From an uncultured Anaerolineae bacterium (lineage in GTDB: Bacteria; Chloroflexota; Anaerolineae; VGOG01): a DNA stretch of 64,000 nt. Each line of letters starts with the position of its first letter. The stretch's first letter is position 1. A program made the translations under genes and the position numbers. The DNA lies in the NCBI GenBank assembly GCA_964510205.1, contig CAZEBW010000004.1, positions 3,638-67,637 of the forward strand, read 5' to 3'. Under the pieces are notes generated by a model, which worked only from the letters and a program-made list of their open reading frames with translations, ran no database searches and was not told the origin of the DNA. Below are positions 3,930-27,920 of this stretch, piece by piece.

Positions 3930-3930
<1 letters not shown>

Positions 3931-11268: not shown

Positions 11269-11400
11269 GCCTCCCTCCTGCAGAAGCGACGTGTGCTACT
11301 GGCCTAGATTATACTCGTGGTGGGGTAAAAGGCAAGCTCTGGTTGGGGAGAAAAGAAAGAGGCCATCCCGGTGGGTGAGGGGTGGGATGGCCCGGTCAAT

Positions 11401-11430
11401 TTGACAAGATTAGAACATGTGTGCTATAAT
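11401..11430 (+). promoter_or_regulatory. Near-consensus sigma-70 promoter
   Basis: TTGACA (11401-11406), 18-nt spacer ending in TGc, TATAAT (11425-11430). A GAGGAGGGA RBS precedes ATG 11486. Confidence 0.55.
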
Positions 11431-11485
11431 CAATCTCGAAAAACCGTTCTGTTACTTACGCTTCTAATGCAGAGGAGGGAGTGAA

Positions 11486-11725
11486 ATGGGTTTGGATATT
11501 TGGTTCAAGGAAGACATTAGGAACATTCTATTGGGTGTGGAGTTGGCCAATGGGCATCTGGCCAGTCGCTACAGTGATGACGAAGTGCGGGCTTATCGTG
11601 AGGGGTTTAAGGCTGCTCTGGCAGCGACGGCGGTGAGTTTTGGGATCTATCAATTCGGACCGCGGGCGGAAGCGCATCGCATTGGGAGCCAAACTGCGCT
11701 CTCCACAATTGCAGAGCAGCCTTGA
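11486..11725 (+). CDS. Small hypothetical protein (79 aa)
   Basis: ORF with a strong RBS and promoter. No recognisable domain. Convergent with the 3' end of the island operon. Confidence 0.5.
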   Translation: MGLDIWFKEDIRNILLGVELANGHLASRYSDDEVRAYREGFKAALAATAVSFGIYQFGPRAEAHRIGSQTALSTIAEQP

Positions 11726-11840
11726 ACCCGGCTGATTGATTCTTAACCCCGATGCCATTCTCCACTGGGACGCCAGGCATGCTTTGTGCAAGGCGTGTCT
11801 GCTGCTGGTCTCGGTAGAGCGGTTGCGATGCCCCCACTTT

Positions 11841-13340
11841 TCATGGAAGCGGTGGCAGTAGTATCCTATTGATGGTTATGCCCCACTGGTCACTTCTTCG
11901 TTCAAGCCCTTCCATTAGTTGCTGGCATGCTGTGGCCTTGTTCGGCGGATCATGTACATCCTGTTGCCTGTATCCACATAACGCCTCATTCAGGAGCACG
12001 GCCATTTCCTGCACGATTTCTTTGTCCCAAATAGTCTTCATGTCGGCTTCGGTCAGTTTTTTCTTCTTGGTCTTCTTGTGGTTATTCTCACCAGATTCTC
12101 TAAAGAAGTGAGGTGCATGAACCGCTTTTTCCTTATTGACCTGGTAGTAAACTACTGGGGCAAGCTGCAAGACCCCATCTGCTAGTGCGACTTTCTGTTT
12201 GGGGCAACGGCATCTCAGCTCCATGGTCGGGATTACAGCTTGAATTTGGCTGTACAAGGGAAGCTGAAGAATACTTTGACCTTCTTCCAGCACCCTGATT
12301 TCGCGACTGTCTCCGATCACAGCAATCCTGTCGGGTGGGACGGTGAAGGTGAACGCCCTGTATCCAACGAGCACCAGAAGGACAAGCAAGAGTGGCAAGG
12401 CCGTACCCGCGGCAGTCAAGACAACGATGTGCAGTGAACTGCGCACGGAAAGCAGTATGCTCGCCAGCAGCATCAGTAGTACAATGACCACAAAGCCTGC
12501 CAACGCGCTGACAAAGGCGAGCACAGGGCTGGACAGTATTAGGTTGATGGCATCGCGAGCGTATGTGAGCAATGTCTCGAGTTGAATAGCAAGCGATGGT
12601 GGAGATTGCTCCGCCGCTCCGTCCTTCTCCTGCTCTGACGGCCTCATGCCTTGCGGACTGGCGTCTCCAGGTGGAAGGGATTCTTCGTCAATGTCCTCTG
12701 AGTTCATGGCTAGTCGTTCCGTCGTTTGCTCAGGCATACTCTCTTCACCCTCCTCTTGTTTTTGCTTCGCCTCTTGGCCTGACGGCTCCGTTTGTACGGG
12801 ACCAGCTCTTCCACGTCGAAGCGGTCCTCCGCCGGTATCTCCTGAATCCATGGCTACTTGTTGGTCTCGCAGGATCTTCCGGTATCGTGACTCGACTGTG
12901 CGCCTTAGGCGGCGGTCCATGTCCTGCAGCAGTTCCAGGCTGCGTGAACAGGCTTGACTTGCCTTGAGCCATTTGCCTTGGGCCTCGCACACCGTGGCCA
13001 ATCCAAAGAGGGCTACTGCTTGACTATGTTTGTCACTCAGAAAGAAGCGAGTGCTCTCTTGATACTTGTTGGCTGCCTCATCCAAGTGTTCCTGAGCGTG
13101 AAAGATAGCTGCGAGGTGAATAAGGGCTACCCCTTGAGCATATGAGTCATCCAACATGTCCAATTCGAGAGATCCTCTTGCTGATCTAATGCTTTGCTCA
13201 GCTATCGATTGGGCTGCTTTGTACCGGCCAGCTCGTCGCAGTTTGTCGGCCTCCTTGTTGAGCACGGTACCGCGATTAGTTCGTTCTCTTAGTTGGCGTA
13301 TGATCTGGTTGGCTTGTCGGTGGTAAGGATCGGATGTCAT
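11841..13340 (-). CDS. TPR-like N-domain / acidic linker / 2 TM / divergent SPFH (band-7)-like C-domain protein
   Basis: N-terminal helical-repeat region (AAQSIAEQS...LFGLATVCEAQGKWLKA), an E/S/P-rich linker and two hydrophobic helices. The C-terminal pattern (RIAVIG..REIRVLEEGQ...VVYYQV...WGITINRILLPP) is collinear with the SPFH fold. Start set at MTSDPY (ATG 13340). Confidence 0.55.
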   Translation of the reverse strand: MTSDPYHRQANQIIRQLRERTNRGTVLNKEADKLRRAGRYKAAQSIAEQSIRSARGSLELDMLDDSYAQGVALIHLAAIFHAQEHLDEAANKYQESTRFFLSDKHSQAVALFGLATVCEAQGKWLKASQACSRSLELLQDMDRRLRRTVESRYRKILRDQQVAMDSGDTGGGPLRRGRAGPVQTEPSGQEAKQKQEEGEESMPEQTTERLAMNSEDIDEESLPPGDASPQGMRPSEQEKDGAAEQSPPSLAIQLETLLTYARDAINLILSSPVLAFVSALAGFVVIVLLMLLASILLSVRSSLHIVVLTAAGTALPLLLVLLVLVGYRAFTFTVPPDRIAVIGDSREIRVLEEGQSILQLPLYSQIQAVIPTMELRCRCPKQKVALADGVLQLAPVVYYQVNKEKAVHAPHFFRESGENNHKKTKKKKLTEADMKTIWDKEIVQEMAVLLNEALCGYRQQDVHDPPNKATACQQLMEGLERRSDQWGITINRILLPPLP

Positions 13341-13419
13341 TGAAGTCCCCCCATAGAAGGAAAGCCCACCGGGATGCAGGAGAGTTGGGCCGGATAAACT
13401 AAGGTGTTCTGCGATATCG

Positions 13420-14727
13420 CTATGGGCTGCCAGGCGGCAATGCAATCGCTGATCTTATGGATTGCAGAGTGGCCATCACGTCGGAAGGCAGAAGGATCTT
13501 GGTCGCTGGATCGGAGGCCATTTTCTCCAGAGCTTCAATGAAACGCAAGGCTATGAATTGTGGAATCGGGATGTTCTTAGTCTCCATCTGACGGAAGCCT
13601 TCGGTGATGGCTATGATCATTCTAGTTTGAGCTTGTGCTCTGGCAACCTCAATCAGGTTATATACTTCAGCCTGTGCCTCGCCTTCAGTGATGAGGACTT
13701 GCTTGCGACTCTCCGCCATGCGCGCTTCCCAGTCTACTTGCCATTTCTTTTGCATTCCTTCCCTAATTTCCGGAGGCACCTCAATATTCAGCATCTGAAA
13801 GCTTATGATAGTGCCTCCCCAGCCTTCGGCTATCTTTCGCAGGGAATCTCGGACACGCTGCTTGATGTCGCTTTGAGGGAACGTGTTGGGATCCAGTGGG
13901 TCAAAGATATCATCCAAGTAACGTTTGCCAATCTCGTCGCGAAGCAGATTCTTGGCTACTTCGATAGTGGCGATTTCCCAGTCATAGCTATCGTAGGTAG
14001 CTTTGAGGACCGCCTCTCTAGAGAATGGATAGGGCTTCTCTGGGTTCCACACCTTGGCTGGATCCTGCGCGATGCGGAATAGAACGCTATAGTGGATGGT
14101 CACCGGTATGCCATCTTTGGTTGAGGCATTATCTAGCGTTCCTCTCCTGAACCGTTTCCGTGTGACGATGACCTTCCTGATACTTTCAAAAGGCTTGGTG
14201 CGCACTGCACCGGGCCCCTCAATGCGAGTGAATTTCCCCATCCGCTCGAAGACAACGGCTTGCTCGTTGCGTATTACGATCAAATTGGCTACCTTGAAGC
14301 CGGCGAGTGCGCCTTTGGACTTCACCTCGTCCACTTGGCCATCTTCAACGATGATGTAGCTTCCCAGGAATAGCTCTCCGGTGACAAAAGAGAGTAAATA
14401 CCGAAAGCAGTCCCACTGATTGCCGCCCCGGCTGACCAGTATGAGTTGCGAGGCCAGAAACAGGAGACTGCCTGTTAAGAATAGATAGACAGCCAGCCCC
14501 AATACTGCCCCCGTCAGGCCTCTCGTGACGAAGGAGAAGGTCAGAAACACCCCACTTGCAGTGAAGAATATCGCCAGCGCCACGCCCTTGCTCTGGCCCA
14601 TCCTGACAAGACACCCAAGGGAGACCACAGCGAGCCATACTAGGCCCCATTTGGGCTCGTGAACTACAGAGACTAAAATCAGTAGTGGAAGCAGGGCTAC
14701 GGACAACACAAGCAAGATCTTCTTCAT
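13420..14727 (-). CDS. SPFH/band-7 (stomatin/prohibitin-like) membrane protein
   Basis: Four N-terminal TM helices, then VIRNEQAVVFERMGKF...TKDGIPVTIHYSVLFRI...GWGGTIISFQMLNIEVP and a coiled-coil tail. AAGGAGAG RBS precedes ATG 14727. Confidence 0.75.
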   Translation of the reverse strand: MKKILLVLSVALLPLLILVSVVHEPKWGLVWLAVVSLGCLVRMGQSKGVALAIFFTASGVFLTFSFVTRGLTGAVLGLAVYLFLTGSLLFLASQLILVSRGGNQWDCFRYLLSFVTGELFLGSYIIVEDGQVDEVKSKGALAGFKVANLIVIRNEQAVVFERMGKFTRIEGPGAVRTKPFESIRKVIVTRKRFRRGTLDNASTKDGIPVTIHYSVLFRIAQDPAKVWNPEKPYPFSREAVLKATYDSYDWEIATIEVAKNLLRDEIGKRYLDDIFDPLDPNTFPQSDIKQRVRDSLRKIAEGWGGTIISFQMLNIEVPPEIREGMQKKWQVDWEARMAESRKQVLITEGEAQAEVYNLIEVARAQAQTRMIIAITEGFRQMETKNIPIPQFIALRFIEALEKMASDPATKILLPSDVMATLQSIRSAIALPPGSP

Positions 14728-14903
14728 AGCACAAGCTCTCCTTGTTTCTGTCAGCACTCTTAAGGTACGTGAGACTGCCGTCCAGTGCGTTCAACACGAG
14801 CTTATCTGACGGCGCCACAGGTATCACCCAGTTTCCATAGATCGAGGCAAAACCAAAAGGCCGCGGCTCGATATCGAAAACGTTTTGCAATGAGGGTGCT
14901 CAC

Positions 14904-16418
14904 TCAGCTCTGGGCGATCAAAATGGGGGAAGCCCAAGTCAAGTCATCCTTATTACGCATTGCCAGCTCTCGCCGGGCATCCAGCAGTGCCAGTTCAGGG
15001 CTGCCGTGCTGGAGCATAGAACGATAGAACGCCAGTGCCATTTCCTTGGCGCTCACTGCCGGCACTGACCACCTGTAGCCCAAAACAGACGGCACCCCTG
15101 ATTGGATAATTCCATCAGCGATACCCAGGTAGTCATCGTCCAGCAAATCAACCGGGCTGCCGGTACGAGTGCCCTCGCAGCACGTCAGGTGAAACAAACG
15201 GGTGTCAGAATCTTCCAACAGCCATCTCAGCTCATTTCCGGTCATTGGCTTTATATTCCCTGACCGGTTGCTGTCTTCCCAGAAGAACAATCTGCTCTGT
15301 TCCGGAGACCCCTCGTGAAAGACTCCGTGACCAACATAATGCACGATGTGATGCTTACACCCACGGAGCATTTCTTGCACTGCACTGTATGTAGCTGCTT
15401 CGGTTCTGACATGAGTCAAATCCAACCAGTTCAGTGGCGACAGCAAATCCACCAACTCTTCTCCGATTTTGTCAATCAGATCAATGCGTGGCTCAGTGTT
15501 GGACACGAGCAGTAGAACACGCAGGTTCTCGCCTGAACTGGCGAGACGTCGTATGAGTTCAGCAGAGATGGGTTCACGCCTCGTCACTACGCCTCGAATT
15601 TGGCGGACCATTGGATGGAGCAGTGTAAGGTAATCACCAGCCTCATCGGAAAAGATGAACTCCAGTGGCAATCCTGCCAGATCTCGGGTGGATTCAAACA
15701 CGAGGTGCAAGTATTGGTTCATTTGCGTCCTACCGAGTGCTCGGTGATACCCGTTGAGTACCGCAGAGTGCTGTTCGAACAGCAGGCGGTATAGCTCCCG
15801 TCCCACGTCTTTGATCAGAAAGCGGCGGTCTGCTGTGCTCATCATGCGTTCGCTTCCCCAGCGTGCAAAACGTGGAGCGTCGAGGCTTAGTGGATTGACA
15901 GAGGTGTATGTGAAGCGGATGTTGCCACGGCCCCGCACAAGAAGTCGCTGCCCTGGCTCTAGCGAGATTGTAATTTCGCACTCTTGGCTCGGCTCAAAGA
16001 CCGGCAATTGCCATTTCAATGACCTACTGATCACGCTATCCATCACTTTAACCACATCTTCTATCATGGTCTTTGGGAGGTACTCGGCTACAAGTCGCCG
16101 TCCAGTTGCATCAGGTTCCAGGGCGCGCCTCATCGTGTCAGGGGTACCATAGCCGGTGATAATGACAATCGGGAGCCCAGGGAATCGTCGTTTAAGCTCA
16201 GCAGCTAGATCAAGGCCTTCTAGGTTGCCTTCATCTGTCTCGTCCAAGCGCATGTCAAGTAGGGCTGCGTCGAAATGCTCTCGGTCAGACAAATCCAGGG
16301 CTCGCGCAACACTGGCAGCCGTTTTGGTTGCGTAGCCCTCGTCAATCAAGAGTTGTGAAAGGGTCACTCGCCAGTCAAACAAATCATCTACGATAAGCAC
16401 CTGGATTTGTTTAGTCAT
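14904..16418 (-). CDS. Response-regulator receiver fused to CHAT (caspase-like) peptidase domain
   Basis: REC features: VLIVDD...LLDMRLDE...ITGYG...LPK. CHAT features: HIVHYVGHG (His), LFHLTCCEG (Cys), SVLGYRWSV. The ATG overlaps the stop of the upstream kinase by 8 nt. Confidence 0.85.
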   Translation of the reverse strand: MTKQIQVLIVDDLFDWRVTLSQLLIDEGYATKTAASVARALDLSDREHFDAALLDMRLDETDEGNLEGLDLAAELKRRFPGLPIVIITGYGTPDTMRRALEPDATGRRLVAEYLPKTMIEDVVKVMDSVISRSLKWQLPVFEPSQECEITISLEPGQRLLVRGRGNIRFTYTSVNPLSLDAPRFARWGSERMMSTADRRFLIKDVGRELYRLLFEQHSAVLNGYHRALGRTQMNQYLHLVFESTRDLAGLPLEFIFSDEAGDYLTLLHPMVRQIRGVVTRREPISAELIRRLASSGENLRVLLLVSNTEPRIDLIDKIGEELVDLLSPLNWLDLTHVRTEAATYSAVQEMLRGCKHHIVHYVGHGVFHEGSPEQSRLFFWEDSNRSGNIKPMTGNELRWLLEDSDTRLFHLTCCEGTRTGSPVDLLDDDYLGIADGIIQSGVPSVLGYRWSVPAVSAKEMALAFYRSMLQHGSPELALLDARRELAMRNKDDLTWASPILIAQS

Positions 16419-17205
16419 GGCTGCTATCCGTGGGAGTTTCTATGGCTTTGATCACAGGGAGTGTGATCGCTATCGTCGTGCCGTGGCCAATCTCAGTATG
16501 TTTTACACTAATCTCTCCACCAAACCTGGCAAGTATCAAATGCGCTAACCAGAGACCCAGGCCCTTGTTGGTCCCGGTTGACGGAATCGGACCCTGAAAA
16601 AGATCGGCAAGAATGAGTTGCGGTATCCCTGTTCCGTTATCTGCAATCTCTACTCGCACTGTGTTGTCCGCGTCCACGTACTGGGTATGGATGTCAATAT
16701 GTCCGGGTTTTTTGCTTGTTGCTTGGATCGAGTTTTCGAGCACCGCCCGGAAAACCTCCGCGAGCAAGTGGCTATCAGCACGCACGGGAGGGACATCCTC
16801 TGGAAAATCAAAACTCACCCGTACTGTCTTGGAAGTGTGGCTAGCAGAAAGTTCTTCCCAGACCTCATACAGCAGTGAGTTTACGTCTAAGGGCATAGGC
16901 GGCTCACTCGGCTCTCTGAGTACTTCGACGGCGGCACTTAATTCGCTCAAACTGCTAATGGTCTTTTCTATGGCTGTGACCAGGTCGAGGGCGGCTCTAT
17001 CGTTGCTATTGATGTATTCCTTAAGACGACCGACTCGAACTCCCAGCAACCCAGTCAAGTTGGAGAGCTGGTGCAGTAATGCAGCAGAAGCCATCCCCAG
17101 TGCAATGAGGCTGGCCTCCTCCCCGTGGCTACGGTTAGGATGTGCACTTTCTTGCGGTAGGGGTGGATTTGGTCTCTGACTTTCCCGGTCATTTGGTGGA
17201 CTCAT
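16411..17205 (-). CDS. Sensor-less cytoplasmic histidine kinase (DHp + HATPase_c only)
   Basis: H-box-like AALLHQLSNLTG. ATPase N/G boxes VLENSIQAT, IADNGTGIP, GLGLWLAHLI. No TM or sensor domain. Confidence 0.8.
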   Translation of the reverse strand: MSPPNDRESQRPNPPLPQESAHPNRSHGEEASLIALGMASAALLHQLSNLTGLLGVRVGRLKEYINSNDRAALDLVTAIEKTISSLSELSAAVEVLREPSEPPMPLDVNSLLYEVWEELSASHTSKTVRVSFDFPEDVPPVRADSHLLAEVFRAVLENSIQATSKKPGHIDIHTQYVDADNTVRVEIADNGTGIPQLILADLFQGPIPSTGTNKGLGLWLAHLILARFGGEISVKHTEIGHGTTIAITLPVIKAIETPTDSSHD

Positions 17206-17241
17206 TTGTCGGATTCTCCCAAGCGCGGCGCGTCCTTCAGT

Positions 17242-18717
17242 TCACTCCTGATGAATCAAGATAGGCGACAACCAGGTTGGATCGTTTCTGTCCATAGCGG
17301 CCAGCTCGCGCCTTGCGCTCCAGAGGGCGAACTCCGGCCCCCCTTGCTCCAATAAGGACTGGTAGAAAGCCAACGCCAGCCGACGGGCTCCATCATCTGA
17401 CACAGGCCAGCGGAAGCCCAGCACCGAGGGTGCGCCGGCCTGCGCGACAGCGTCGGCCAGCCCAAGGAAATCGTCATCCAGCAAAGCAGCCTGAGCGCCG
17501 CTGGCTGTGCCATAGCAACTGCTCATGTACACCAGACGTGCTTCCGAGCGCCTGAGTAGCATCTTTAGTTCGGTTGCTTTCATCGGCATGACGCCACCTT
17601 GCTTATTCTCCTGGGCCCAGAAGTATAGGCTGCTATCTTCAGGGGACTCGGTCCTGTACGAGCCATGTCCTGCGTAATGTACAATGTCGTAACTGGGCTT
17701 CCCCAACTCTGATCTTACGCGCTCATACGTGGCGCGCTCCGTGGGGATGAGTTTAACACTGACAGGGATGCAGTCCTGGCTCTTTAAGTACTCGTACAGT
17801 GCCTGCGCCTCGGCATCTACGCCGTCTATTGGAGGCTGTGTGTTAGAGGCGATAATCAGAATTCGCAATTCCTGAGTCAGTGCCAGCAGCGAAGGGGAAA
17901 TCAGGCTGCGTTTCGGGGTAGCATTGTATAGAAAACGGGCGAGGGGGTGTTGAAGTACCAGGTACTCTGGAGGATCATCCGAGCGCATAAATTCCAATGG
18001 TAGTCTGAGAAATTCCCTGGGCGTCTCAAAAAGCATTGAAAACGACTGGCTCTTGGCGCGCGCTTCCACATAGGCTTTTTCGGCTTCAGGGTGCTCAGTA
18101 AATATGTCACGCCACAGACTGTGGCCGATCTCCCCAACCTGGAAACGCAAATTGCTCACGTCTCTTCTGGCGAGTTCTGTCCGCCTTGCATAGCGTTCGA
18201 GTGCCACACGCAACACTTTCCACGAGCGCAAGGAACAGACGTGGCGACCGCGCGCCCTGATCACCAGAGGCTGTCCGGCTGTGAGTGATAGAGATAGCTG
18301 GGTAGCATCACCTGTCTTCTCAAACCTCGGCTTGGTTGCCTCCTGGCGTGCTTTCGCGATAGTCTCCAGAACTTGTTCAGCCACATCCGGGGTTTTTTCG
18401 ATGAAGTCAACTACTCCGAGATATCGAATCGCGCGTACAATTTGCTTGGTTCTCGGGTAGCGTGTGAGCAGGATGACGCGAACCCGCGGATTGAGGGCGC
18501 GGAATGCCATCGCCAGGCTCAATCCGCTTTCGTCCTCTTCATCATCTCCGTGCAGGCGCACGTCAATGAGAGCAAAGTCGAACGGTTCTTGCGTGACAGC
18601 AACCAGGGCTTGTTCCTCGTTGGCCGCTGACCGGACGGTGTATCCTTCATCGGAAAGTCGCCCTGCTAACGTGGTACAGAAATCGGCATGGTCATCTACT
18701 ATCAGAATCTTGCACAT
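17242..18717 (-). CDS. Response-regulator receiver fused to CHAT (caspase-like) peptidase domain
   Basis: REC features: ILIVDD...LIDVRLHGDDEEDE...LLTRY...IEK. CHAT features: DIVHYAGHG (His), LVYMSSCYG (Cys), SVLGFRWPV. Start chosen at MCKILIVDD (ATG 18717, GAGGG RBS); upstream in-frame ATGs at 18732 and 18768 are possible. Confidence 0.85.
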   Translation of the reverse strand: MCKILIVDDHADFCTTLAGRLSDEGYTVRSAANEEQALVAVTQEPFDFALIDVRLHGDDEEDESGLSLAMAFRALNPRVRVILLTRYPRTKQIVRAIRYLGVVDFIEKTPDVAEQVLETIAKARQEATKPRFEKTGDATQLSLSLTAGQPLVIRARGRHVCSLRSWKVLRVALERYARRTELARRDVSNLRFQVGEIGHSLWRDIFTEHPEAEKAYVEARAKSQSFSMLFETPREFLRLPLEFMRSDDPPEYLVLQHPLARFLYNATPKRSLISPSLLALTQELRILIIASNTQPPIDGVDAEAQALYEYLKSQDCIPVSVKLIPTERATYERVRSELGKPSYDIVHYAGHGSYRTESPEDSSLYFWAQENKQGGVMPMKATELKMLLRRSEARLVYMSSCYGTASGAQAALLDDDFLGLADAVAQAGAPSVLGFRWPVSDDGARRLALAFYQSLLEQGGPEFALWSARRELAAMDRNDPTWLSPILIHQE

Positions 18718-18757
18718 TGCTACCCTCTTCATCAACTGTCTGATGGGACGCTCCGGG

Positions 18758-19639: not shown

Positions 19640-19665
19640 GGCACTCCTGCCGATTGCATCTTGTC

Positions 19666-20067: not shown

Positions 20068-20453
20068 TCTCTTACTCCTTCGTGCTTACCATGGCGATTA
20101 CGCGGCACCTGTGGAAACAGAATGATCTCCCTGACCTGCTCGAAGAGATCCTCGCTTCCGAAAGACTTGGCGAAGTAGCGCATGGCTCCCAACCGGTAGG
20201 CCGCAAGCGCCTCTTGGGTCGTGGGTTGTACTGTTGTTACGACCACCCGCTTATCAGAGTATTTCTCAGCGATGACTGCAAGCACGTCCAGGCGGCGGGA
20301 GCTTGCGATGACCAGGTCGAACTGATCCGCTTCGAGTTCAGCGAGTGCTGCCTTGGTGTCAGGCGCAACGACGATTTCAAACTTGTTGAGATCGCTCTTG
20401 GCGAACTCAATCCAGCGAGGTTCGTCGTCAATGATCAGAATGCGAGTTTTCAT
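20064..20453 (-). CDS. Atypical (pseudo-)receiver domain protein; phospho-acceptor Asp replaced by Ser
   Basis: ILIIDDE...FDLVIASSRR...VVVTT...FAKSF. The acidic pair, Thr and Lys are kept, but the D57-equivalent reads S. AGGAGG lies 7 nt upstream of ATG 20453. Confidence 0.7.
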   Translation of the reverse strand: MKTRILIIDDEPRWIEFAKSDLNKFEIVVAPDTKAALAELEADQFDLVIASSRRLDVLAVIAEKYSDKRVVVTTVQPTTQEALAAYRLGAMRYFAKSFGSEDLFEQVREIILFPQVPRNRHGKHEGVRE

Positions 20454-20455
20454 GA

Positions 20456-23400
20456 TCACACCTCCTTTCCCGTCCCCGGCGCTGGGATCTGAACCAGCAT
20501 TGTTGTTCCAGTGGGATCGGTCTCTTCTATTATAGCATCACCGCCAATACTTTGCAACATCAGTCGGCTGAGCCAGAGACCCAGACCTGCCCCTCCGCCT
20601 GGCTCCTTGGATGGGACTGGTTTGACGAAGAGACGTTGCTGGACTTGCAGTGGGATGCCCGGTCCTGTATCCTGAACCCGCACACAGATATTACTGTCGG
20701 TCAGACGACTGGTAACTGCTAACTGGCCACCCGCCTTCATTGCTCGGTAGGCATTGTCAACCAAGTTGTAGAAGACCTCAGCGATCTGACCGATCGGGGC
20801 CCGAATCTGCGGCAGCGATTGATCCAGGTCTAGGGTATGTTCGATCGTTGATCGAATGGGATCCGTTCGCCACTGTTCTCTCACTTTACCCACCACGTCA
20901 CTCAGCACTGCGTTAATGTCCACATCCTGATCCTCGACCTCTCGCAGCGGTTCTTGAATGCGCGCGATGATATCCGACGTATAGCGGGCGTTACGTTCGA
21001 TGATGTCAAGGATCTCTGCAATCGTATCATTCGACATATCAACGCGCTTCCGCAGGCGCGTCACGTTGGGAACGATGATGTTGAAGGTATTATTGACACG
21101 ATGTTGTAAAGCTGCGATGGCCGTGCCCAGTGTGGCCAAGCGCTTGGTCGCGATGACTTCACTGCGTGCCTCCTCATATAACCGGGCATTCTCAAGGGCA
21201 ATGGCTGCCTGGTTGGCCATAGAGGAGATGACCTGCAAGTCCTGTTCATCGTAGGCCTGCTCTCTTTCCCAGTCGTAGATAGCGATCACGCCCAGAACCC
21301 TATTCTCCAGAACCATCGGGACACCTATCCAAGATTTGGCGACACGCCCGATGAACTCTTGATGTCCGGGCTGTCCATACCACGCTTTAGATTCCACTTG
21401 GGTGCGATGCAGGATTGGCTTCTTGGTAAGGATGACTTCTTCGGTCTTACCCCGCTTCTCCATATCAGCCTTGCGGGGATCGTAATGCACCTGCTCACCG
21501 TGCTCCGTTGCCAGACCGAAGCGGATCATCCCTGTTTCCTCGTCATACAGCGCGATGTACATGTCCTGTGCGCCGGTCAACTCCCTGGCCTGCTCGTAGA
21601 TTAGCTCCAGAATCTCATCTTGCTTCAGACGAATACCGGAGGTTAGTGCCTGTCCTACCTCATTCAGTGCCGCCAACGCCTGAACGCGCCGTGCGAGCTG
21701 CTGGTTGATCTCGTAGTAAAGCGTTGCATTATCCAACGCGATTGCCGCTTGGTTGGCCACAGAGGAGATGACCTGCAAGTCCTGTTCATCGTAGGCCTGC
21801 TCTCTTTCCCAGTCATAAATGGCGATCATACCCAGTACCTTCTCACCTGTGACCATGGGAACGCCCAAGTAAGAAGGCTGAACACGCCCGATGAACTCTT
21901 GATGTCCGGGCTGTCCATACCACGCTTTAGATTCCACTTGGGTGCGATGCAGGATTGGCTTCTTGGTAAGGATGACTTCTTCGGTCTTACCCCGCTTCTC
22001 CATATCAGCCTTGCGGGGATCGTAATGCACCTGCTCACCGTGCTCCGTTGCCAGACCGAAGCGGATCATCCCTGTTTCCTCGTCATACAGCGCGATGTAC
22101 ATGTCCTGTGCGCCGGTCAACTCCCTGGCCTGCTCGTAGATTAGCTCCAGAATCTCATCTTGCTTCAGACGAATACCGGAGGTTAGTGTCTGTCCCACCT
22201 CGTTCACTGCCTGTATAGCTTTATACAAGCGTGCGCTTTTAATAGCAACCGCTGCTGCCCCAGCTAGGGCCTCAACCAGACGCATGTGATCGTCTGTAAA
22301 GGCTCCGATTTGGGTACTCTCCAGATTGAGCGTTCCAATCACTCTGTCACGGTGTATCAACGGTGTTGTGAGTTCGGATTGTACTTCCTCAAACCACTCC
22401 TTGTAGTACGGATCGCTTTTGATATCGTTGCAAAGATATGTCTTTCTACTCAAGGCAACGTGTCCGTTGATGCTCGTCTCGTCTAGGGGTAGTCTCGTGA
22501 GGGTTCGCGTCGGCGTCTCATCCCTCTTGTTTCTCGCCCCAAATCGCAGTTCACGTGTCCGCTCGTCCAGCAACCAAATACTCGTATACTTGGCTGGCGT
22601 CAGCCTGGCCGCTTGCTCTGCGATTTGCTCCAGCAGATCCTCTAGGGAAGCAGTGCCAATGAGCGCGTATAGGTTCTGAAGAGCTCTGATATCATCAATT
22701 CGCTCTTGTAGGCTAGTCTGAGCCTCTTCGTACACACGGGCGTTATAGATAGCTGTCGCCGCTTGATTAGCGAACAGCTCGATAGCCCCCCGTTGCTCAG
22801 GAGTGAAGGGTTGTCGGCTCCGGTAATTGACGAACATAGCGCCCACGGTTTCGCCTGCTGCTTCGAGGGGGACGGCGGCTGACGATAGGATTCCCTCGCG
22901 CACTACAAAGCGCTTTTCCGGGCGCTCAGGGCGCTCTACGGTGAATGGGCCGGTGAGCAGGGTATCCGTCTGAGTATCGGGAGAGTAGAGGGGCTCTCCA
23001 CCCTCGACCACTTTCACAACGACATCATCCTTGAATATTTCGTCCTTGACAACTGTGGGGTCTCGGCGCTCTCCTTCCAAGATAGGTGGCATGATGTAAC
23101 GGTCATCCGCCTCAACGTACTGGTACACATCCACGAGATCGGCACCCAATACACTCCTGGCACTTCGCGCCACCTGACGCAATACCTCTCTCAACCCCTG
23201 TGCCGAAAGCTCAGCCGAGAGTATTCGTCCCCCAATCTGGTGCAGCCTCTGCAAGACTGCAGCCCGGCTGGTTGCCTGCTCAAGAAGTTGAGCATTGTGT
23301 ACAGCCACGGCGGACTGGCTGGCCACCGCCTCTAACAGCATCTGATCGTGCTCGTCAAAGCCGCTCAGCCCGTCCATATCAGCAGAGATCACCCCAATAA

Positions 23401-24193
23401 CCTCGTCTTGCAAGATTATGGGCGCCAGCACCATTGAGCGCTCGACGATGTCTGACGACAAACCGGGGACAAACTGAGGGTGCTTGACCGCATCCGGGAC
23501 GAGTTCTGATTGCTTGGTTTGGGCTACCCACCCGGCCAACCCGACCCCTTGGGCGAACTGCTGTCGTGCGATGCCTGCTGACGAGGCAGCTTCCAACGCT
23601 AGGTCACCGCTCTTATCCACTAGAAAAACGCTGATGTGCTTGCAATCCAGCACTCTTTCTGCGGCTTGCATAATGCGTGCGAAAAGATCGGCACGGCGCA
23701 ATTCGGAACTGATCAAGAGGCTCACTGCGTTCAGGGTCGCCAGATCCTGAATTCGACGCTGCGTGGCAGCCACTTGAGCGGAAGAACTCTCAATCAGCGC
23801 CTTCTCGAAATCAGTGAAATCCCTTGCCTCACGGGTATAAACGTCAAGCACACCAACGATTTTCCTTTTTACTCGTAGTGGTACCACCATAGCCGACTTC
23901 AGTCCCATAGCGGTGGTTTCTGGTTTGTACTTCCAGCGAGCATCGGTGTCAACGTCTGTCACGACGATTGCCTGTTCAGTCGCAAAAACGTCAGACGCGA
24001 CACTGGGCTCATCCAGGCGCAGAAACGCATCGCGAACGTATTCCTCTGACAACTCTGTCGCTGCAGCGATCCGGAGGGTTTCCCCCGTTTCATCGGCAAG
24101 CCAGATACAGGCCGGCAGTCCCAGAGTCTGGCTTATGGTCTCCACCACGGGTTGAAAGAACTGCTTTTTATCAAGTTCTTGAGAGGGGATCAT
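20456..24193 (-). CDS. Multi-GAF cytoplasmic histidine kinase (HisKA_2-like H-box + HATPase_c)
   Basis: 1245 aa with about five to six GAF-like modules judged by periodic motifs (e.g. VPL...VIGVL...). The C-terminus has AALQHRVNNTFN (an HRVxN-type H-box) plus LVDNAYRAM, VQDTGPGIP, GLGLWLSRLM. No TM segment. AAGGAGAG RBS. Confidence 0.9.
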   Translation of the reverse strand: MIPSQELDKKQFFQPVVETISQTLGLPACIWLADETGETLRIAAATELSEEYVRDAFLRLDEPSVASDVFATEQAIVVTDVDTDARWKYKPETTAMGLKSAMVVPLRVKRKIVGVLDVYTREARDFTDFEKALIESSSAQVAATQRRIQDLATLNAVSLLISSELRRADLFARIMQAAERVLDCKHISVFLVDKSGDLALEAASSAGIARQQFAQGVGLAGWVAQTKQSELVPDAVKHPQFVPGLSSDIVERSMVLAPIILQDEVIGVISADMDGLSGFDEHDQMLLEAVASQSAVAVHNAQLLEQATSRAAVLQRLHQIGGRILSAELSAQGLREVLRQVARSARSVLGADLVDVYQYVEADDRYIMPPILEGERRDPTVVKDEIFKDDVVVKVVEGGEPLYSPDTQTDTLLTGPFTVERPERPEKRFVVREGILSSAAVPLEAAGETVGAMFVNYRSRQPFTPEQRGAIELFANQAATAIYNARVYEEAQTSLQERIDDIRALQNLYALIGTASLEDLLEQIAEQAARLTPAKYTSIWLLDERTRELRFGARNKRDETPTRTLTRLPLDETSINGHVALSRKTYLCNDIKSDPYYKEWFEEVQSELTTPLIHRDRVIGTLNLESTQIGAFTDDHMRLVEALAGAAAVAIKSARLYKAIQAVNEVGQTLTSGIRLKQDEILELIYEQARELTGAQDMYIALYDEETGMIRFGLATEHGEQVHYDPRKADMEKRGKTEEVILTKKPILHRTQVESKAWYGQPGHQEFIGRVQPSYLGVPMVTGEKVLGMIAIYDWEREQAYDEQDLQVISSVANQAAIALDNATLYYEINQQLARRVQALAALNEVGQALTSGIRLKQDEILELIYEQARELTGAQDMYIALYDEETGMIRFGLATEHGEQVHYDPRKADMEKRGKTEEVILTKKPILHRTQVESKAWYGQPGHQEFIGRVAKSWIGVPMVLENRVLGVIAIYDWEREQAYDEQDLQVISSMANQAAIALENARLYEEARSEVIATKRLATLGTAIAALQHRVNNTFNIIVPNVTRLRKRVDMSNDTIAEILDIIERNARYTSDIIARIQEPLREVEDQDVDINAVLSDVVGKVREQWRTDPIRSTIEHTLDLDQSLPQIRAPIGQIAEVFYNLVDNAYRAMKAGGQLAVTSRLTDSNICVRVQDTGPGIPLQVQQRLFVKPVPSKEPGGGAGLGLWLSRLMLQSIGGDAIIEETDPTGTTMLVQIPAPGTGKEV
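21211..22200. repeat. In-frame 540-bp tandem duplication (one GAF module) inside the kinase gene
   Basis: 21342-21648 is identical to 21882-22188 (307/307 by eye). 21221-21274 is identical to 21761-21814. The roughly 65 bp between the two blocks are strongly diverged. Confidence 0.9.
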
Positions 24194-24228
24194 GGGTCAC
24201 TCTCCTTGTCATCTGTAAATGGGCAGAT

Positions 24229-25569
24229 TCAATTATGAGGTTGGTGTCTCCAGACTTCCAATGACTCCCTATATCCCGCTTCCGAAAATGCTAACCCCTT
24301 CTCCCTCAGCATCATAGCGGTGAGAAGGTGAGGTAATCCTTTCTTCTTTTCCAGGAAGACGATTTGTGGGCCGGAAAGCGTACGCCTACCATTCTTCTTC
24401 AGGAATTGCATGAGCTGGCGACGTCCGCGCTCAACGGTCTTTAAGAAACGCTGTGCCTCGGTTGAGAAATAGGATTCCAGTTTCTCCTCGTCCTCCGGCG
24501 CCGCTCGCGAAGCGTTGCGCACTGTTTGGGAAATGCAATCTATCAGTGTGGGTAGAAACCCCCTGGTTTCGATGCCCAGAACAATCTGCCGCGTTACGAC
24601 ACCTCGAATCAATAGCTTAATGAGACGCTCTCGCCCATTCTTACCTGGAGGTGGAGCGCCATCTGCGACTAGGAAATACAGCGCCTTTAGATAATCTGCC
24701 ATCACATGTTCGCTGGCAGTGATCAACGATTCTGGCAGGTCAGGTGCGCGAACGAGACTATGTATGGTGTCTGTGATCGGTTGGTAACTACTTATCTCAA
24801 ACACTGATTGAGCATCTTGCAGGATCATTGCCACGCGCTCAGTGCCAATCACCGTTTCGAAGAAAGGCTCCGTCATCGGTTGGAGCCTTTGGGTCTTAGT
24901 GTCTATCTCGGTGCTGACAAAGAGTGAATTGGCGAATTCAACGAACCGACCGCACTGGCAAGGCGGCCGACAATCGGGGCCGCAGCCAAAGACCGCGCCT
25001 CGATCAAAGAACATCTCAGTATTGGGCCCGCATTTACGATAGCGAACTACCCCTTCAATGCCATTTCCTTGTTTCCAGAGGTTGTCCTTGACTCCCAGAC
25101 CTATGATCTGCTCTTCAGGCATCCCGATACTCCGCCAAGCTTGATGAGCCTCTACATCCTCGTCAAACGCATGCTTTGAAATCTTACCCCCGGCGAAATA
25201 AGTGACCCATATGTTGTCTGGCTTGATTCTCAGGTTTGAGGTCATGAACTCCCACATTTGCTGGATAACAGTTGCCTTGCTGAGAGCATTAAAGGAAAAA
25301 GCGGCGGGCATTTCAAACAAGCTTAGGTGCACATTGTCGGTTCCAACGGTGTCAATGTCGAAATATCTGAAGCACTTTTGCACCAGTGCATACTTATGCC
25401 CGGCACGCTTGCCCATCTGATCAAGAGCCTTTTCAAATTGCGGTAATCCAGCACTCATTACGAACGACATAGGAATAGAGGGATGCAACAGCGAGGCACT
25501 AGGCAGAACGGAGAATCCTTTGCCCTGGTAATAATCGAGGAACGTTTGGCTAATGGCTGGGGATCGCAT
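24229..25569 (-). CDS. Alanyl-tRNA synthetase catalytic-core paralog (aminoacylation + tRNA-recognition domains only; no editing or C-Ala domains)
   Basis: 446 aa, collinear with roughly the first 450 residues of bacterial AlaRS. Matching blocks: FLDYYQGKGF, VMSAGLPQF (vs FTNAGMNQF), QKCFRYFDIDTVG (vs QRCVR..NDLENVG), LFEMPAAFSF (vs FFEMLGNFSF), KCGPNTEMFFD (vs GPCGPCTEIFYD), ETVIGTERV (vs DTGMGLERI), YFLVADGAPPPGKNGRE (vs AFLIADGVMPSNENRGY). Confidence 0.8.
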   Translation of the reverse strand: MRSPAISQTFLDYYQGKGFSVLPSASLLHPSIPMSFVMSAGLPQFEKALDQMGKRAGHKYALVQKCFRYFDIDTVGTDNVHLSLFEMPAAFSFNALSKATVIQQMWEFMTSNLRIKPDNIWVTYFAGGKISKHAFDEDVEAHQAWRSIGMPEEQIIGLGVKDNLWKQGNGIEGVVRYRKCGPNTEMFFDRGAVFGCGPDCRPPCQCGRFVEFANSLFVSTEIDTKTQRLQPMTEPFFETVIGTERVAMILQDAQSVFEISSYQPITDTIHSLVRAPDLPESLITASEHVMADYLKALYFLVADGAPPPGKNGRERLIKLLIRGVVTRQIVLGIETRGFLPTLIDCISQTVRNASRAAPEDEEKLESYFSTEAQRFLKTVERGRRQLMQFLKKNGRRTLSGPQIVFLEKKKGLPHLLTAMMLREKGLAFSEAGYRESLEVWRHQPHN

Positions 25570-25621
25570 TTTCTAGCTCCAAATCACGCGATACACCGAA
25601 CGTTATTGTAGATGCATGAAT

Positions 25622-25650
25622 ATTATATCAAACCTGTCCTTAAATGTCAA
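25622..25650 (-). promoter_or_regulatory. Perfect consensus sigma-70 promoter for the island operon
   Basis: The minus strand reads TTGACA (25650-25645), an exact 17-nt spacer, then TATAAT (25627-25622), set in an AT-rich gap. About 50 nt of 5'UTR with a GGAG RBS precedes ATG 25569. Confidence 0.65.
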
Positions 25651-25704
25651 GGCATCCAAAATACTGGATAGACATACACCGTATCGTTCAAGGAGTTGGG
25701 GTAA

Positions 25705-26070
25705 TCACACATTCGGGTGATGGCACTTCTTCCCAGTCGAAAATATCTCTAGCGAAGGGGCATCATATCGAGGCCCTCCTTCGAAGTCCCTAACGAACCG
25801 GTAAAACTCGTCAATGAAGCTGACTAATTCATCAGTATGCTCACTGATCGCCTTGACATCAGGGGAGATGTTCTCCTTGAGTTCCCTCTTGAACTTTTCA
25901 TCCTTCTCCTCAAGAGCAGCCCAATCCCAAGCCCCGTCAAGGTACTTGCGAATCTCCCCTAGCACATGATCTCGTGCGAGTGTGAGATCAGATGGGCAAT
26001 CTTTTGCCTTTAATCTACGATAATCTAATTCCATTTCCCTGCAAAGGGCTGGCGCATGGTCTCTGTCCAT
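25705..26070 (-). CDS. Hypothetical protein; possibly the C-terminal part of a frameshifted lipoprotein gene
   Basis: 121-aa ORF. Its frame is open upstream to 26124 and it overlaps the 26025-26249 ORF. Confidence 0.4.
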   Translation of the reverse strand: MDRDHAPALCREMELDYRRLKAKDCPSDLTLARDHVLGEIRKYLDGAWDWAALEEKDEKFKRELKENISPDVKAISEHTDELVSFIDEFYRFVRDFEGGPRYDAPSLEIFSTGKKCHHPNV

Positions 26071-26249
26071 CCCCTCGAAACTCTCAACACGTGAGTCAAA
26101 TTCATTGAGCGATTGACCAGCTCACAGGCATATTCCCTTACCAATTTGACATCAGCAGGTTTTGAGGATGTCTGCTCAGGGCTGCAGGCCATGACCACCG
26201 GCATTAGAAAACAAAACAGAAGTAGCAAGACAATCTTTTTCATGAGCAC
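26025..26249 (-). CDS. Lipoprotein signal peptide ORF (74 aa); possibly the N-terminal part of a frameshifted gene
   Basis: MLMKKIVLLLLFCFLMPVVMACS is a lipobox signal. The ORF ends 45 nt after the next ORF begins in another frame. Confidence 0.4.
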   Translation of the reverse strand: MLMKKIVLLLLFCFLMPVVMACSPEQTSSKPADVKLVREYACELVNRSMNLTHVLRVSRGWTETMRQPFAGKWN

Positions 26250-26440
26250 TCTACCTCCTCAGATGGTGTGGCAGATCGTAGTGCCGGCAGGTCAGAGCCA
26301 GAAGCTGATTGGCCCCGACATTTCATAGATTAGTTAGGGCTCTAGAAGAGTGTAATCCATTCGCCACGGTTCATTTACGGGGGTTACCTGCGTCATGCTT
26401 CCACCCCTCTACACGGCGGTTGCGCCCCCCCAAAAAACGC

Positions 26441-27872: not shown

Positions 27873-27920
27873 TCTCTTGTCAGCCTGAAGTTTACCAGAT
27901 TGTGGATGAATAGTCAAGAC

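Follow-up and report, generated by a model that had tools for sequence, protein, structure and literature searches.

A low-GC block at a variable site of an Anaerolineae genome carries composite accessory cargo with an AlaRS-like/kinase/CHAT operon

The window, a 64-kb stretch of DNA from an uncultured Anaerolineae (Chloroflexota) genome, contains a low-GC island of about 15 kb (11300–26400) set between host genes. A GT2 glycosyltransferase gene (10312–11268, minus strand; GC3 0.82; Pfam Glycos_transf_2) borders it on the left, and a host lipoprotein gene (26441–27730, minus strand; GC3 0.87) on the right, beyond which lies FolC (28124–29482, plus strand). Island GC was 0.530 relative to 0.604 for the remainder of the window, and the island is the lowest-GC 15-kb stretch within it. 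The break was far sharper by GC3, for which the 11 island genes (0.53–0.66, mean 0.58) and the 31 outside genes (0.69–0.87, mean 0.77) did not overlap at all (Mann–Whitney p = 1e-6). GC-normalised tetranucleotide profiles correlated with the outside profile at r = 0.69–0.72 for island windows versus 0.81–0.91 for outside windows, with an L1 distance of 0.31 versus 0.15 ± 0.02. GC, GC3, and tetranucleotide composition thus all deviate inside the island, and the compositional break claimed in the initial annotation was borne out. Its figure of 45 to 60% GC for 60-nt lines of the island was also correct (measured 5th–95th percentile range, 0.43–0.62), whereas the 65 to 77% given for the flanks was overstated: outside lines span 0.47–0.72, and over 1 kb a GC of 0.61–0.65 is attained only by the genes immediately adjoining the island. 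Long shadow ORFs are lacking in the island as described, the longest nongene ORF there being 206 aa, versus sixteen of 230 to 483 aa, all outside. Host-type repeats are likewise absent (none of 31 Tandem Repeats Finder rows falls inside), but this gap is not specific to the island, since it runs from 1993 to 27918 and so covers the left flank too; the recurring hairpin CGAAGCAATC...GATTGCTTCG is confined to window positions 6411 and 42182.

The left edge of the island consists of a G+C-rich hairpin with a perfect 9-bp stem (11361–11392, no strand assigned) between GT2 and a small gene, a perfect sigma-70-type promoter (TTGACA-N18-TATAAT; 11401–11430, plus strand), and the small gene itself, which encodes a conserved 79-aa protein (11486–11725, plus strand). 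This protein has 52 homologs, most of them 78 to 86 aa long, with a conserved N-terminal segment of ∼55 aa and a variable C-terminal tail; it matched nothing in Pfam, NCBIfam, or PADLOC. Among the related loci compared (numbered with the prefix L), the gene adjoins the GT2 ortholog in L107 to L111, relatives that carry other cargo, and its substitutions lie mainly at third codon positions. The hairpin is conserved in L107, L108, and L109, and the promoter aligns in the same three loci as TTGACC ... TATAAT/TACAAT. Because this unit is conserved beside GT2 in relatives with other cargo, and DNA homology with them stops only at ∼11655, the 79-aa gene and its promoter are hotspot framework and not acquired cargo. 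At the right edge lies a frameshifted remnant of a small lipoprotein gene (25691–26255, minus strand), which comprises ORFs of 72 and 121 aa in different frames; tblastn with a 268-aa protein of L023 aligned to it in three frames, and the same broken ORFs are present in L001 and L002.

Both transcription units of the island start at near-perfect promoters, as had been proposed. TTGACA-N16–18-TATAAT has exactly two matches in 64 kb, the one at 11401–11430 and one on the minus strand (25650–25622), both with an extended −10 TG, relative to 0.01 expected in shuffled sequence. The second is a perfect sigma-70-type promoter 52 nt upstream of the ATG of an alanyl-tRNA synthetase (AlaRS)-like gene, the first of a cassette operon. 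It travels with the closest homologous cassettes: the same perfect promoter (12/12) was found at L034 and L037, and an 11/12 match in L035.

The left part of the cargo contains four genes, all on the minus strand. The first (11841–13340; 499 aa from the probable start, ORF to 13445) encodes a protein with TPR repeats (Pfam TPR_12), a transmembrane segment, and a weakly SPFH-like C terminus, whose alignment to the neighboring SPFH domain is collinear but weak (E = 0.009). The 499-aa gene call recurs in L112, and no fetched locus contains an ortholog. Next is a membrane SPFH/Band 7 protein (13420–14727; 435 aa, ORF to 14757; Pfam Band_7, 8.9e-18). Its best matches are the SPFH proteins of the same hotspot in L005 and L010 (34–36% identity), and SPFH proteins linked to homologous cassettes are 28 to 32% identical. 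A receiver–CHAT protease of a second type follows (14904–16418; Pfam Response_reg and CHAT); it is 67% identical to the receiver–CHAT protein of L043 and 37 to 40% identical to the common type, and retains the phospho-acceptor Asp together with a GHG His and a TCCEG Cys. The fourth gene (16411–17205) encodes a 264-aa histidine kinase (Pfam HATPase_c) without a sensor domain, which is the add-on partner of the second receiver–CHAT protein; it is only ∼30% identical to kinase C termini elsewhere and has no ortholog among the compared loci.

The core cassette (17242–25650) is read on the minus strand, in the order AlaRS-like protein (24229–25569), multi-GAF histidine kinase, pseudo-receiver, receiver, receiver–AlbA_2, and receiver–CHAT, with overlapping start and stop codons along the operon. 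The cytoplasmic kinase (20456–24193) has six GAF stretches and a HATPase_c domain in Pfam and an H-box, LQHRVNN, in its sequence; its DHp domain matched no Pfam model. A 540-bp tandem duplication within the gene leaves 21342–21641 and 21882–22181 100% identical, and the L027 and L030 kinases share 40 to 47% identity with the protein. The single-domain pseudo-receiver (20064–20459) has Ser at the position of CheY Asp57, a substitution shared by its L030 ortholog (69% identity). The single-domain receiver (19666–20067; 65% identical to the L030 counterpart) has an intact phospho-acceptor. In all, four of the five receivers of the island align an Asp with CheY Asp57. The receiver–SLFN/AlbA_2 protein (18758–19642; 294 aa from MYKGRVLVVDD, ORF to 19831; Pfam Response_reg and SLFN_AlbA_2) has counterparts at 56 to 76% identity in nine other cassettes, and L092 gives a partial match with 49% identity. 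The canonical receiver–CHAT protease (17242–18768; Pfam Response_reg and CHAT, 1.5e-33) retains the receiver Asp and is 59 to 74% identical to those of L040, L046, L101, L049, L054, L055, and L030.

This gene order recurs across about 50 loci. The multi-GAF kinase gene directly follows the AlaRS-like gene in 53 of the 56 loci with downstream sequence; of the three exceptions, that of L041 comes from overlapping ORF calls. The full succession of two receivers, receiver–AlbA_2, and receiver–CHAT is present in the window and nine other loci; in L050 and L093, a ∼530-aa receiver protein replaces receiver–AlbA_2. SPFH genes lie upstream of the cassette in eleven loci, as a pair in ten. Effector sets vary among cassettes (AlbA_2, CHAT, EAD11–trypsin), and the homologous cassettes include EAD7 and EAD11 (L030, L032) and a trypsin-like protease. 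The core, which makes up most of the block, thus belongs to an operon family that is widespread and apparently undescribed, and whose hosts are probably filamentous Chloroflexota. Judged by its domains, the operon would couple a remodeled AlaRS-like protein to a sensor kinase that controls caspase-like proteases.

The AlaRS-like protein has 446 aa (all close relatives, ∼445 aa) and comprises the aminoacylation and tRNA-recognition domains only, without the editing and C-Ala domains. It covers positions 2 to 426 of 552 of Pfam tRNA-synt_2c and positions 2 to 417 of 847 of TIGR00344 (alaS), where its 224 bits fall below the cut-off of 457; it matches solved AlaRS fragments at 1e-49 and is ∼30% identical to canonical AlaRS. 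A residue comparison of 118 family members showed that the motif 2 Arg (R68), the TE pair, Asn194, and the motif 3 ER (E244–R245) are kept, the class II ATP-binding residues R68 and E244–R245 being invariant. In all 118, the four-residue AGGK loop of motif 2, which includes Lys73, is deleted, Asp235 is replaced by Glu, and Gly237 is replaced by Val; four invariant Cys residues have been gained. In canonical AlaRS, K73 touches the 3′ end of the tRNA, and the K73A mutation eliminates alanylation while activation persists (PMC6209979); the amino group of the substrate is bound by Asp235 (PMC12143591). The family thus lacks the loop that approaches the tRNA 3′ end and has a changed alanine pocket within a remodeled active site. 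The canonical N-terminal fragment (PDB 9jdn, 3hxu) has the same two domains and the same ATP-binding residues; the family differs from it by these changes, the new Cys4 cluster, and its operonic association with a GAF kinase.

The site, bounded by a conserved GT2 gene and a conserved lipoprotein/FolC pair, is variable. In single contigs of related Anaerolineae MAGs, GT2 orthologs (69–87% identity) were found in L005, L008, L010, L107, and L109, and orthologs of the lipoprotein (51–86% identity) in ten related loci, including L004 to L008, L010, L023, and L025. In L008, GT2 directly abuts the lipoprotein gene, an arrangement that the initial annotation had suggested looking for in relatives. 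A single SPFH gene occupies the site in L010; L005 carries SPFH, TIR–EAD8–CHAT, and SLOG genes; L109 carries the small gene followed by TPR–Peptidase_S24, SPFH–TIR, SPFH, and radical SAM genes; and L107 has other cargo too. Cargo GC3 at this site in relatives is 0.49–0.62 versus 0.67–0.83 in their flanks. The sister genomes, with flank-protein identities of ∼85 to 89%, have no cargo at the site orthologous to that of the window, and the window's SPFH protein is only 34 to 36% identical to theirs, versus ∼85% for flank proteins. The empty site of L008 belongs to a more distant relative than these sisters.

Together, these data indicate that the 15-kb block is accessory cargo that can be swapped at a variable site of the genome, and, by the relationships of its proteins, a composite whose modules differ in their relatives. 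The central idea of a compositionally foreign accessory cassette, as opposed to synteny conserved across the clade, holds, because the site is empty in L008, is filled differently in sister genomes, and the cassette stands in other genomic contexts elsewhere. The foreign composition agrees with it; the left transcription unit, as framework, does not belong to the acquired part. Horizontal exchange is the most parsimonious reading, and as no integrase is present, we infer that recombination between the conserved flanks brought the cassette in. Low GC typifies the cassette family and the hotspot occupants at large, so it points to neither a donor nor a date of transfer.

We favor, with a probability of about 0.7, the reading that the block is composite accessory cargo of a variable hotspot, with an AlaRS-like/kinase/CHAT phosphorelay operon of conflict or cell-death type as its core. 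In the proposed mechanism, the cassette would act as a cytoplasmic phosphorelay gating proteases. The AlaRS-like protein, no longer charging tRNA but with its ATP-binding residues retained, would supply or sense the input. This input may be a nucleotide sensed by the GAF domains, of acyl-adenylate or Ap4A type, or else a bound tRNA or metabolite. The kinase would phosphorylate the receivers and thereby switch on the caspase-like CHAT proteases and the AlbA_2 nucleic-acid-binding effector; the SPFH proteins in the membrane would serve as scaffolds or be targets, and the output would be like that of the systems that multicellular bacteria use for conflict and programmed cell death. A more specific proposal, which we regard as tentative and more probably wrong than right, is that a neofunctionalized paralog of the AlaRS catalytic domain (loop lost, pocket remodeled, Cys4 knuckle) is the input of a multi-GAF kinase that gates CHAT and Schlafen-type AlbA_2 effectors by phosphorylation, in a system that is widespread in Anaerolineae and undescribed. 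The paralog may make an acyl-adenylate or Ap4A-like signal, acylate the kinase, or report tRNA status. If true, this would be a system for programmed cell death or abortive infection that is driven by two-component signaling and has a relative of tRNA synthetases at its center.

The same cassette could instead serve a housekeeping role, as a stress or developmental two-component network of filamentous Anaerolineae with no conflict or defense function. The AlaRS-like protein and GAF domains would then sense amino-acid, lactate, or energy status, and CHAT and SPFH proteins would remodel proteome and membrane. Regulatory systems classically contain histidine kinases, receivers, and GAF domains, the family is widespread with conserved gene order, and no PADLOC system matched; yet the alternative cargo of the hotspot consists of TIR, SLOG, EAD8–CHAT, and SPFH–TIR genes, effector sets differ from cassette to cassette, and presence is patchy in close relatives. 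We consider this a possible but doubtful account.

Unlikely, in our view, is a resident region, ancestral and vertically inherited, that was differentially lost and whose low GC3 reflects weak expression or codon selection in signaling genes. In 11 of 13 loci, the cassette has a lower GC than the host; cassette GC also varies in part with that of the host, and equals it in low-GC hosts. Gene-class bias therefore fits as well as mobility. The AlaRS-like identity to nearest relatives (80–87%) is similar to host-protein identity in the clade (84–89%), so vertical descent of the cassette with relocation may have occurred. The 79-aa edge gene keeps its position in relatives, and neither mobility genes nor repeats were found. 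Against residence stand the lack of orthologous cargo and the divergent SPFH proteins in close sisters, the empty site in the more distant L008, and the differing cassette flanks among loci: even the closest cassette, L034 (AlaRS-like protein 81% identical), adjoins unrelated genes.

A remnant of a prophage, ICE, or transposon with decayed mobility genes would account for the sharp compositional break, the right-edge pseudogene, and the self-contained promoter. This is very improbable, since no island protein has an integrase- or transposase-like Pfam match, the 64-kb window holds no tRNA gene, and no direct or inverted repeat of at least 11 nt joins the two island edges, as the initial annotation had also observed. 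Nor did we find relatives among 2.9 million viral contigs or on plasmids, or mobility genes beside the cassette in L027, L030, and L032. An assembly or binning chimera of two organisms hardly merits consideration, even for a metagenome-derived genome with an exact 300-nt repeat in the kinase gene, where short-read contigs break, because the GT2/small-gene junction is conserved in relatives and independent Logan contigs cross both junctions at 99.8 to 100% identity (L112 on the left, from the GT2 5′ end through the small gene, TPR, and SPFH to receiver–CHAT; L001 on the right, from the lipoprotein gene through the pseudogene and AlaRS-like gene to the kinase).

Defense islands and hotspots are fixed sites between core genes that hold different accessory cargo in related genomes. 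The site studied here likewise has variable cargo and an empty state between core genes, its cargo is GC-poorer than the core, and the cargo of relatives carries TIR, SLOG, CHAT, and radical SAM domains. It differs in that the window's cargo lacks mobile-element genes and matches no catalogued defense system, PADLOC giving weak domain-level matches only. Multicellular bacteria have conflict systems built with effector-associated domains (EADs; PMC7159879, PMC8195603), which are driven by STAND, MoxR–vWA, or other NTPases; EAD7, EAD11, and the trypsin-like protease are typical of those described in PMC7159879. According to Kaur et al. 2020 (PMC7159879), no histidine kinase is among the vWA-associated effectors studied there, and neither that paper nor Kaur et al. 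2021 (PMC8195603) mentions alanyl-tRNA synthetase. CHAT, trypsin-like protease, and TIR with EAD7, EAD11, and EAD8 are shared by the homologous cassettes or neighboring cargo. Here, in contrast, a histidine kinase accompanied by an AlaRS-like protein would be the driver; Pfam detected no STAND, MoxR–vWA, or related NTPase domain in any island protein, and no EAD domain in the window's own proteins, EAD8 being in the L005 cargo.

SAVED–CHAT and other signal-activated CHAT proteases are part of CBASS and type III CRISPR. As in the receiver–CHAT proteins of the window, a caspase-like CHAT domain is fused there to an N-terminal signal-receiving domain; in the window, a phosphorylatable receiver stands in place of a cyclic-oligonucleotide sensor, and the SAVED_CHAT model of PADLOC matched weakly (5.5e-05). 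The elements of a two-component system are in place, with HATPase_c in both kinases, an H-box in the multi-GAF kinase, and the receiver Asp residues. Among aminoacyl-tRNA synthetase derivatives, HisZ and the HisRS-like domain of GCN2 are used for sensing or regulation, and we know of no described case of an AlaRS-like protein paired with a bacterial two-component kinase. [quoted passage not shown] As in these regulators, the synthetase fold of the cassette would have a use outside translation, with a kinase or another regulatory output coupled to it.

The interval 11300-26400, between a GT2 gene (10312-11268, minus strand) and a lipoprotein gene (26441-27730, minus strand), forms a trough of 0.47-0.57 GC at about 11.3-26.4 kb in a sliding-window profile. 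Its GC content is 0.530 versus 0.604 in the rest of the window, and no other 15-kb stretch is lower. The break is far sharper at third codon positions than in overall GC: the 11 island genes have GC3 values of 0.53-0.66, whereas the 31 genes outside have values of 0.69-0.87, the two ranges being disjoint (p = 1e-6). Tetranucleotide usage, normalized for base composition, correlates with the outside sequence at 0.69-0.72 for island windows and at 0.81-0.91 for outside windows. The low-GC island of about 15 kb proposed in the initial annotation is thus borne out, but its description of the flanks as 65-77% GC was overstated; 60-nt lines outside have a median GC of 0.60, and the genes directly adjoining the island, at 0.61-0.65 per kb, are the only genes outside to reach such values.

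Other compositional features noticed at the outset largely hold. Long shadow ORFs are missing from the island (maximum, 206 aa), with 16 of 230-483 aa outside, and the host hairpin CGAAGCAATC...GATTGCTTCG occurs only at 6411 and 42182. The two copies (6411-6446 and 42182-42219) share the stem CGAAGCAATC/GATTGCTTCG and differ in their loops. Heptamer and octamer tandem arrays are indeed lacking inside, but the array-free stretch (1993-27918) takes in the left flank too. Outside the island there are many such arrays, with 4-8 copies of 7-8-nt units of differing sequence (1761-1836, 27919-27973, 29535-29589, 34818-34880, 38452-38517, 40268-40350, 40951-41023, 45234-45289, 58446-58585, and others); those at 27919-27973 and 34818-34880 are intergenic, and those at 29535-29589, 40268-40350, and 45234-45289 lie inside called ORFs. 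A second, milder GC dip at 49277-53678 (0.53-0.57) spans three genes with GC3 of 0.69-0.71, values at the bottom of what host genes show and not island-like. At 54310-54635, a 763-aa gene (53849-56140) contains 2.6 copies of a 126-nt unit (83% matches). Five short perfect hairpins lie within 200 nt at 36738-36939, between genes ending at 36216 and 36974.

Exactly two perfect TTGACA-N17/18-TATAAT promoter sequences are present in the 64 kb, versus 0.01 expected; both carry an extended -10 TG, and both are at the island transcription units to which they had been assigned. One (11401-11430, plus strand) is the predicted promoter of a 79-aa ORF, whose ribosome-binding site is good. The other is at 25650-25622 on the minus strand, which also carries all the large genes. 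Because their stop and start codons frequently overlap, these genes look like a single operon transcribed from this promoter. In transcription order, they encode an alanyl-tRNA synthetase (AlaRS)-like protein (446 aa), a histidine kinase with six GAF domains (1245 aa), two single-domain receivers (REC), a receiver-SLFN/AlbA_2 protein, a receiver-CHAT protein (17242-18768), a kinase without a sensor domain (264 aa), a second receiver-CHAT protein (14904-16418), an SPFH/Band 7 membrane protein, and a TPR-transmembrane protein whose C terminus is weakly SPFH-like. At the right edge of the island, the stretch from the AlaRS-like promoter to the flanking lipoprotein gene contains a frameshifted small lipoprotein gene (25691-26255, minus strand). 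Its ORFs of 72 and 121 aa are matched in three frames by a 268-aa homolog from locus L023, and the identical broken ORFs are present in the independent short-read contigs L001 and L002.

For synteny, window proteins were compared by tblastn with loci found using FolC (28124-29482), which matched only MAGs of uncultured Anaerolineae or Chloroflexota (best identity, 81%). The initial annotation had raised the question of whether the GT2 gene abuts the lipoprotein gene in relatives; in locus L008, the two orthologs directly adjoin. Among the related genomes, L008 lies furthest from the window, with flank identity of about 69-75%; all others stand at much the same distance (84-89%). A single SPFH gene separates the flanks in L010, and three genes do so in L005, encoding SPFH, a 971-aa TIR-EAD8-CHAT protein, and SLOG. 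GC3 is again low in the genes inserted in L005 and L010, 0.51-0.53 versus 0.72-0.83 for the genes that flank them. The L005 cargo (2939-8133), all three genes of which have low GC3 and whose SLOG is a prokaryotic SLOG (LSDAT), looks like a different conflict-type system. In L004, an unusual 769-aa S1-S1-receiver-GAF-histidine kinase fusion (2717-5026) is encoded upstream of the lipoprotein/FolC pair.

Further loci found with the 79-aa protein (L107/L108 and L109-L111) retain eight genes of the left flank (72-87% identity), followed by the 79-aa gene and then by other low-GC3 cargo (TPR-Peptidase_S24, SPFH-TIR, SPFH, radical SAM, and AAA_16/TPR). All five cargo types, the fourth as radical SAM/SPASM, stand behind the 79-aa gene in L109 (1-16246), which also encodes a 1074-aa RAMP-domain protein upstream of the conserved left flank. 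Differing cargo in relatives, or none in L008, indicates a hotspot with cargo turnover between close relatives, and the island is of an ordinary kind, accessory cargo of a core-flanked hotspot.

The left unit and its promoter, initially counted as part of the acquired cassette, do not belong to it. When the GT2/small-gene region of the window is aligned with L107, L108, and L109, four elements prove to be kept: a hairpin (11361-11392), the promoter and leader of the 79-aa gene, and its first ~55 codons. Third codon positions take most substitutions; homology breaks off abruptly near 11655, within the 3′ part of the gene. Conservation beside other cargo places this gene and its perfect promoter in the hotspot framework, outside the present cassette. 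L005, L010, and L008 lack the gene. Members of its family (window 11486-11725, plus strand; L107 8001-8240; L109 8001-8246) are 85-96% identical over the N-terminal ~55 aa and have tails that cannot be aligned at the DNA level, yet most of the 52 homologs fall within 78-86 aa. Reading the ORF as a non-coding RNA or an integration target was rejected, given these lengths and the third-position substitutions.

The core of the island (17242-25650) recurs elsewhere. For the AlaRS-like protein, the database contains 609 relatives at E<1e-10; identity is 49-87% for the best 120, nearly all of which are ~445 aa long, and ~30% for canonical AlaRS. Members at 64%, 61%, and 53% identity have the same order (AlaRS-like protein, multi-GAF kinase, receivers, receiver-effector) between unrelated flanks, and their effectors differ: L030 encodes REC-AlbA_2 and REC-EAD7-CHAT, and L032 encodes REC-EAD11 and EAD11-trypsin. 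A scan of metagenome contigs added 70 AlaRS-like loci. Of the 56 loci with 300 bp or more of downstream sequence, 53 continue with a GAF kinase gene, and one of the three exceptions (L041) reflects an ORF-calling overlap. The full series REC, REC, REC-AlbA_2, REC-CHAT is found in nine loci besides the window; in L050 and L093, a receiver protein of ~530 aa replaces REC-AlbA_2. One or two SPFH genes lie upstream in 11 loci, paired in ten. The nearest relative with flanks, L034 (81% identity), adjoins unrelated ABC-transporter genes. The cassette promoter is perfect there and in L037 and near-perfect in L035, and thus travels with the cassette. Together, these comparisons identify the island core as a conserved, predicted AlaRS-like/GAF-kinase/receiver-protease operon. 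A synthetase paralog is thereby fixed beside a GAF kinase and receiver-fused proteases in dozens of uncultured Chloroflexota. To our knowledge, synthetase paralogs taken into signaling are rare. No published association of AlaRS-like, GAF kinase, and CHAT proteins was found in the literature searched; its coverage was incomplete, and the absence is no proof of novelty.

As judged by protein identity, the island is a composite of modules with different relatives. The REC-CHAT protein at 17242-18768 and REC-AlbA_2 share 56-76% identity with the corresponding proteins of most other cassettes, whereas the second REC-CHAT protein (14904-16418) belongs to a separate lineage, with 67% identity to that of L043 and 37-40% to the remaining ones. 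None of the retrieved loci encodes an ortholog of the 264-aa kinase or of the TPR protein. The SPFH pair may be an integral part of the cassette, as such pairs lie upstream in many cassettes; against this, the SPFH protein of the window is nearest to those of the L005 and L010 hotspots (34-36%), and its TPR partner has no relatives.

The AlaRS-like protein matches solved N-terminal AlaRS fragments across the aminoacylation and tRNA-recognition domains (E=1e-49), scores far under the alaS cut-off, and is without editing and C-Ala domains. The 118 family members compared all keep the motif 2 Arg, a TE pair, Asn194, and the motif 3 Glu-Arg. All 118 have lost the motif 2 AGGK turn, whose Lys73 touches the tRNA 3′ end and whose K73A mutation kills alanylation while sparing alanine activation (PMC6209979). 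All likewise carry Glu for Asp235, which holds the amino group of the substrate (PMC12143591), Val for Gly237, and four new invariant cysteines (C196, C200, C204, C206). We infer that the protein would bind ATP, would not use alanine normally, and would not charge tRNA. Canonical AlaRS can adenylate lactate and acylate proteins, as cited in PMC12143591, so that a function in sensing or acyl transfer would have a precedent. A split housekeeping AlaRS was rejected, as no second half adjoins, the pocket and tRNA-loop residues are altered in all members, and the GAF kinase follows in 53 of 56 loci.

Low GC is not confined to the window. In 11 of the 13 loci with enough flank, GC is lower in the core cassette than in the remaining locus (mean difference, -0.069; largest, -0.17), the two exceptions being low-GC hosts, and the GC3 pattern is the same in L027, L030, and L032. 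This deficit in high-GC hosts makes low GC a standing property of the cassette family and of hotspot cargo. It is compatible with repeated exchange in a shared accessory pool and also with gene-class bias, and it cannot name a donor or date an event; a low-GC signature can be a lasting trait of a cassette family, not necessarily a timestamp of transfer.

The initial annotation saw no integrase, tRNA, or terminal repeats, and none emerged here: ARAGORN and Rfam searches, including the island edges, gave no tRNA and no Rfam family, no integrase domain is encoded in the island, and no terminal or edge repeats of at least 11 nt were found. A phage or plasmid vehicle was rejected, viral contigs containing no relative and plasmids only canonical alaS at ~30% identity. 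An assignment to a known defense system also failed, as PADLOC gave only weak domain matches. Both island junctions are reproduced in the independent Logan contigs L112 and L001 at 99.8-100% identity. The reading as a horizontally acquired cassette is partly supported by these sequence comparisons: synteny and context argue strongly for it, but transfer machinery is lacking, the boundaries have been revised, and the island is composite.

Four receivers align an Asp with Asp57 of CheY; the 131-aa receiver and its L030 ortholog carry Ser there, which marks a conserved pseudo-receiver. In the four intact receivers (14904-20067), the phospho-acceptor strand is followed immediately by an acidic insertion, D-E-x-D-E-x-N, that is specific to the family and missing from CheY and the pseudo-receiver. 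By inspection, both CHAT domains contain the GHG His and Cys motifs of caspase-fold proteases, and the large kinase contains an HRVNN-type H-box. This kinase gene has a 540-bp tandem duplication, with 100% identity between 21342-21641 and 21882-22181 (300 nt) and 79% between the neighboring segments 21186-21334 and 21726-21874 (149 nt), pointing to duplication of one GAF unit. Repeat copy number could be an assembly matter, since both independent short-read contigs, L001 and L002, stop at residue 678 of the kinase, a short way into the repeat.

We propose that an intracellular signal involving the AlaRS-like protein would reach the GAF kinase, as a product (a nucleotide or an acyl-adenylate) sensed by the GAF domains, through kinase modification, or through a tRNA- or metabolite-bound state. 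The kinase would then phosphorylate the receivers, activating the CHAT proteases and the AlbA_2 effector; single-domain receivers may be sinks or connectors, and the SPFH proteins membrane scaffolds or substrates. If this logic holds, the AlaRS-like protein would give bacterial two-component systems a new type of input, a sensor or enzyme derived from an aminoacyl-tRNA synthetase. A purely regulatory, non-defense role is a serious rival. The variable effector sets, the EAD adaptors of sister cassettes, and the TIR, SLOG, and SPFH-TIR cargo that the hotspot holds in relatives place the cassette nearest to the systems of conflict and cell death described for multicellular bacteria (PMC7159879, PMC8195603). 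Neither publication mentions an alanyl-tRNA synthetase, and the 2020 paper reports no histidine kinase among its vWA-associated effectors (PMC7159879). The systems described there are NTPase-driven; under the same proposed logic, the cassette would be driven by its histidine kinase and would add a kinase-driven branch to these caspase-like systems of multicellular bacteria.
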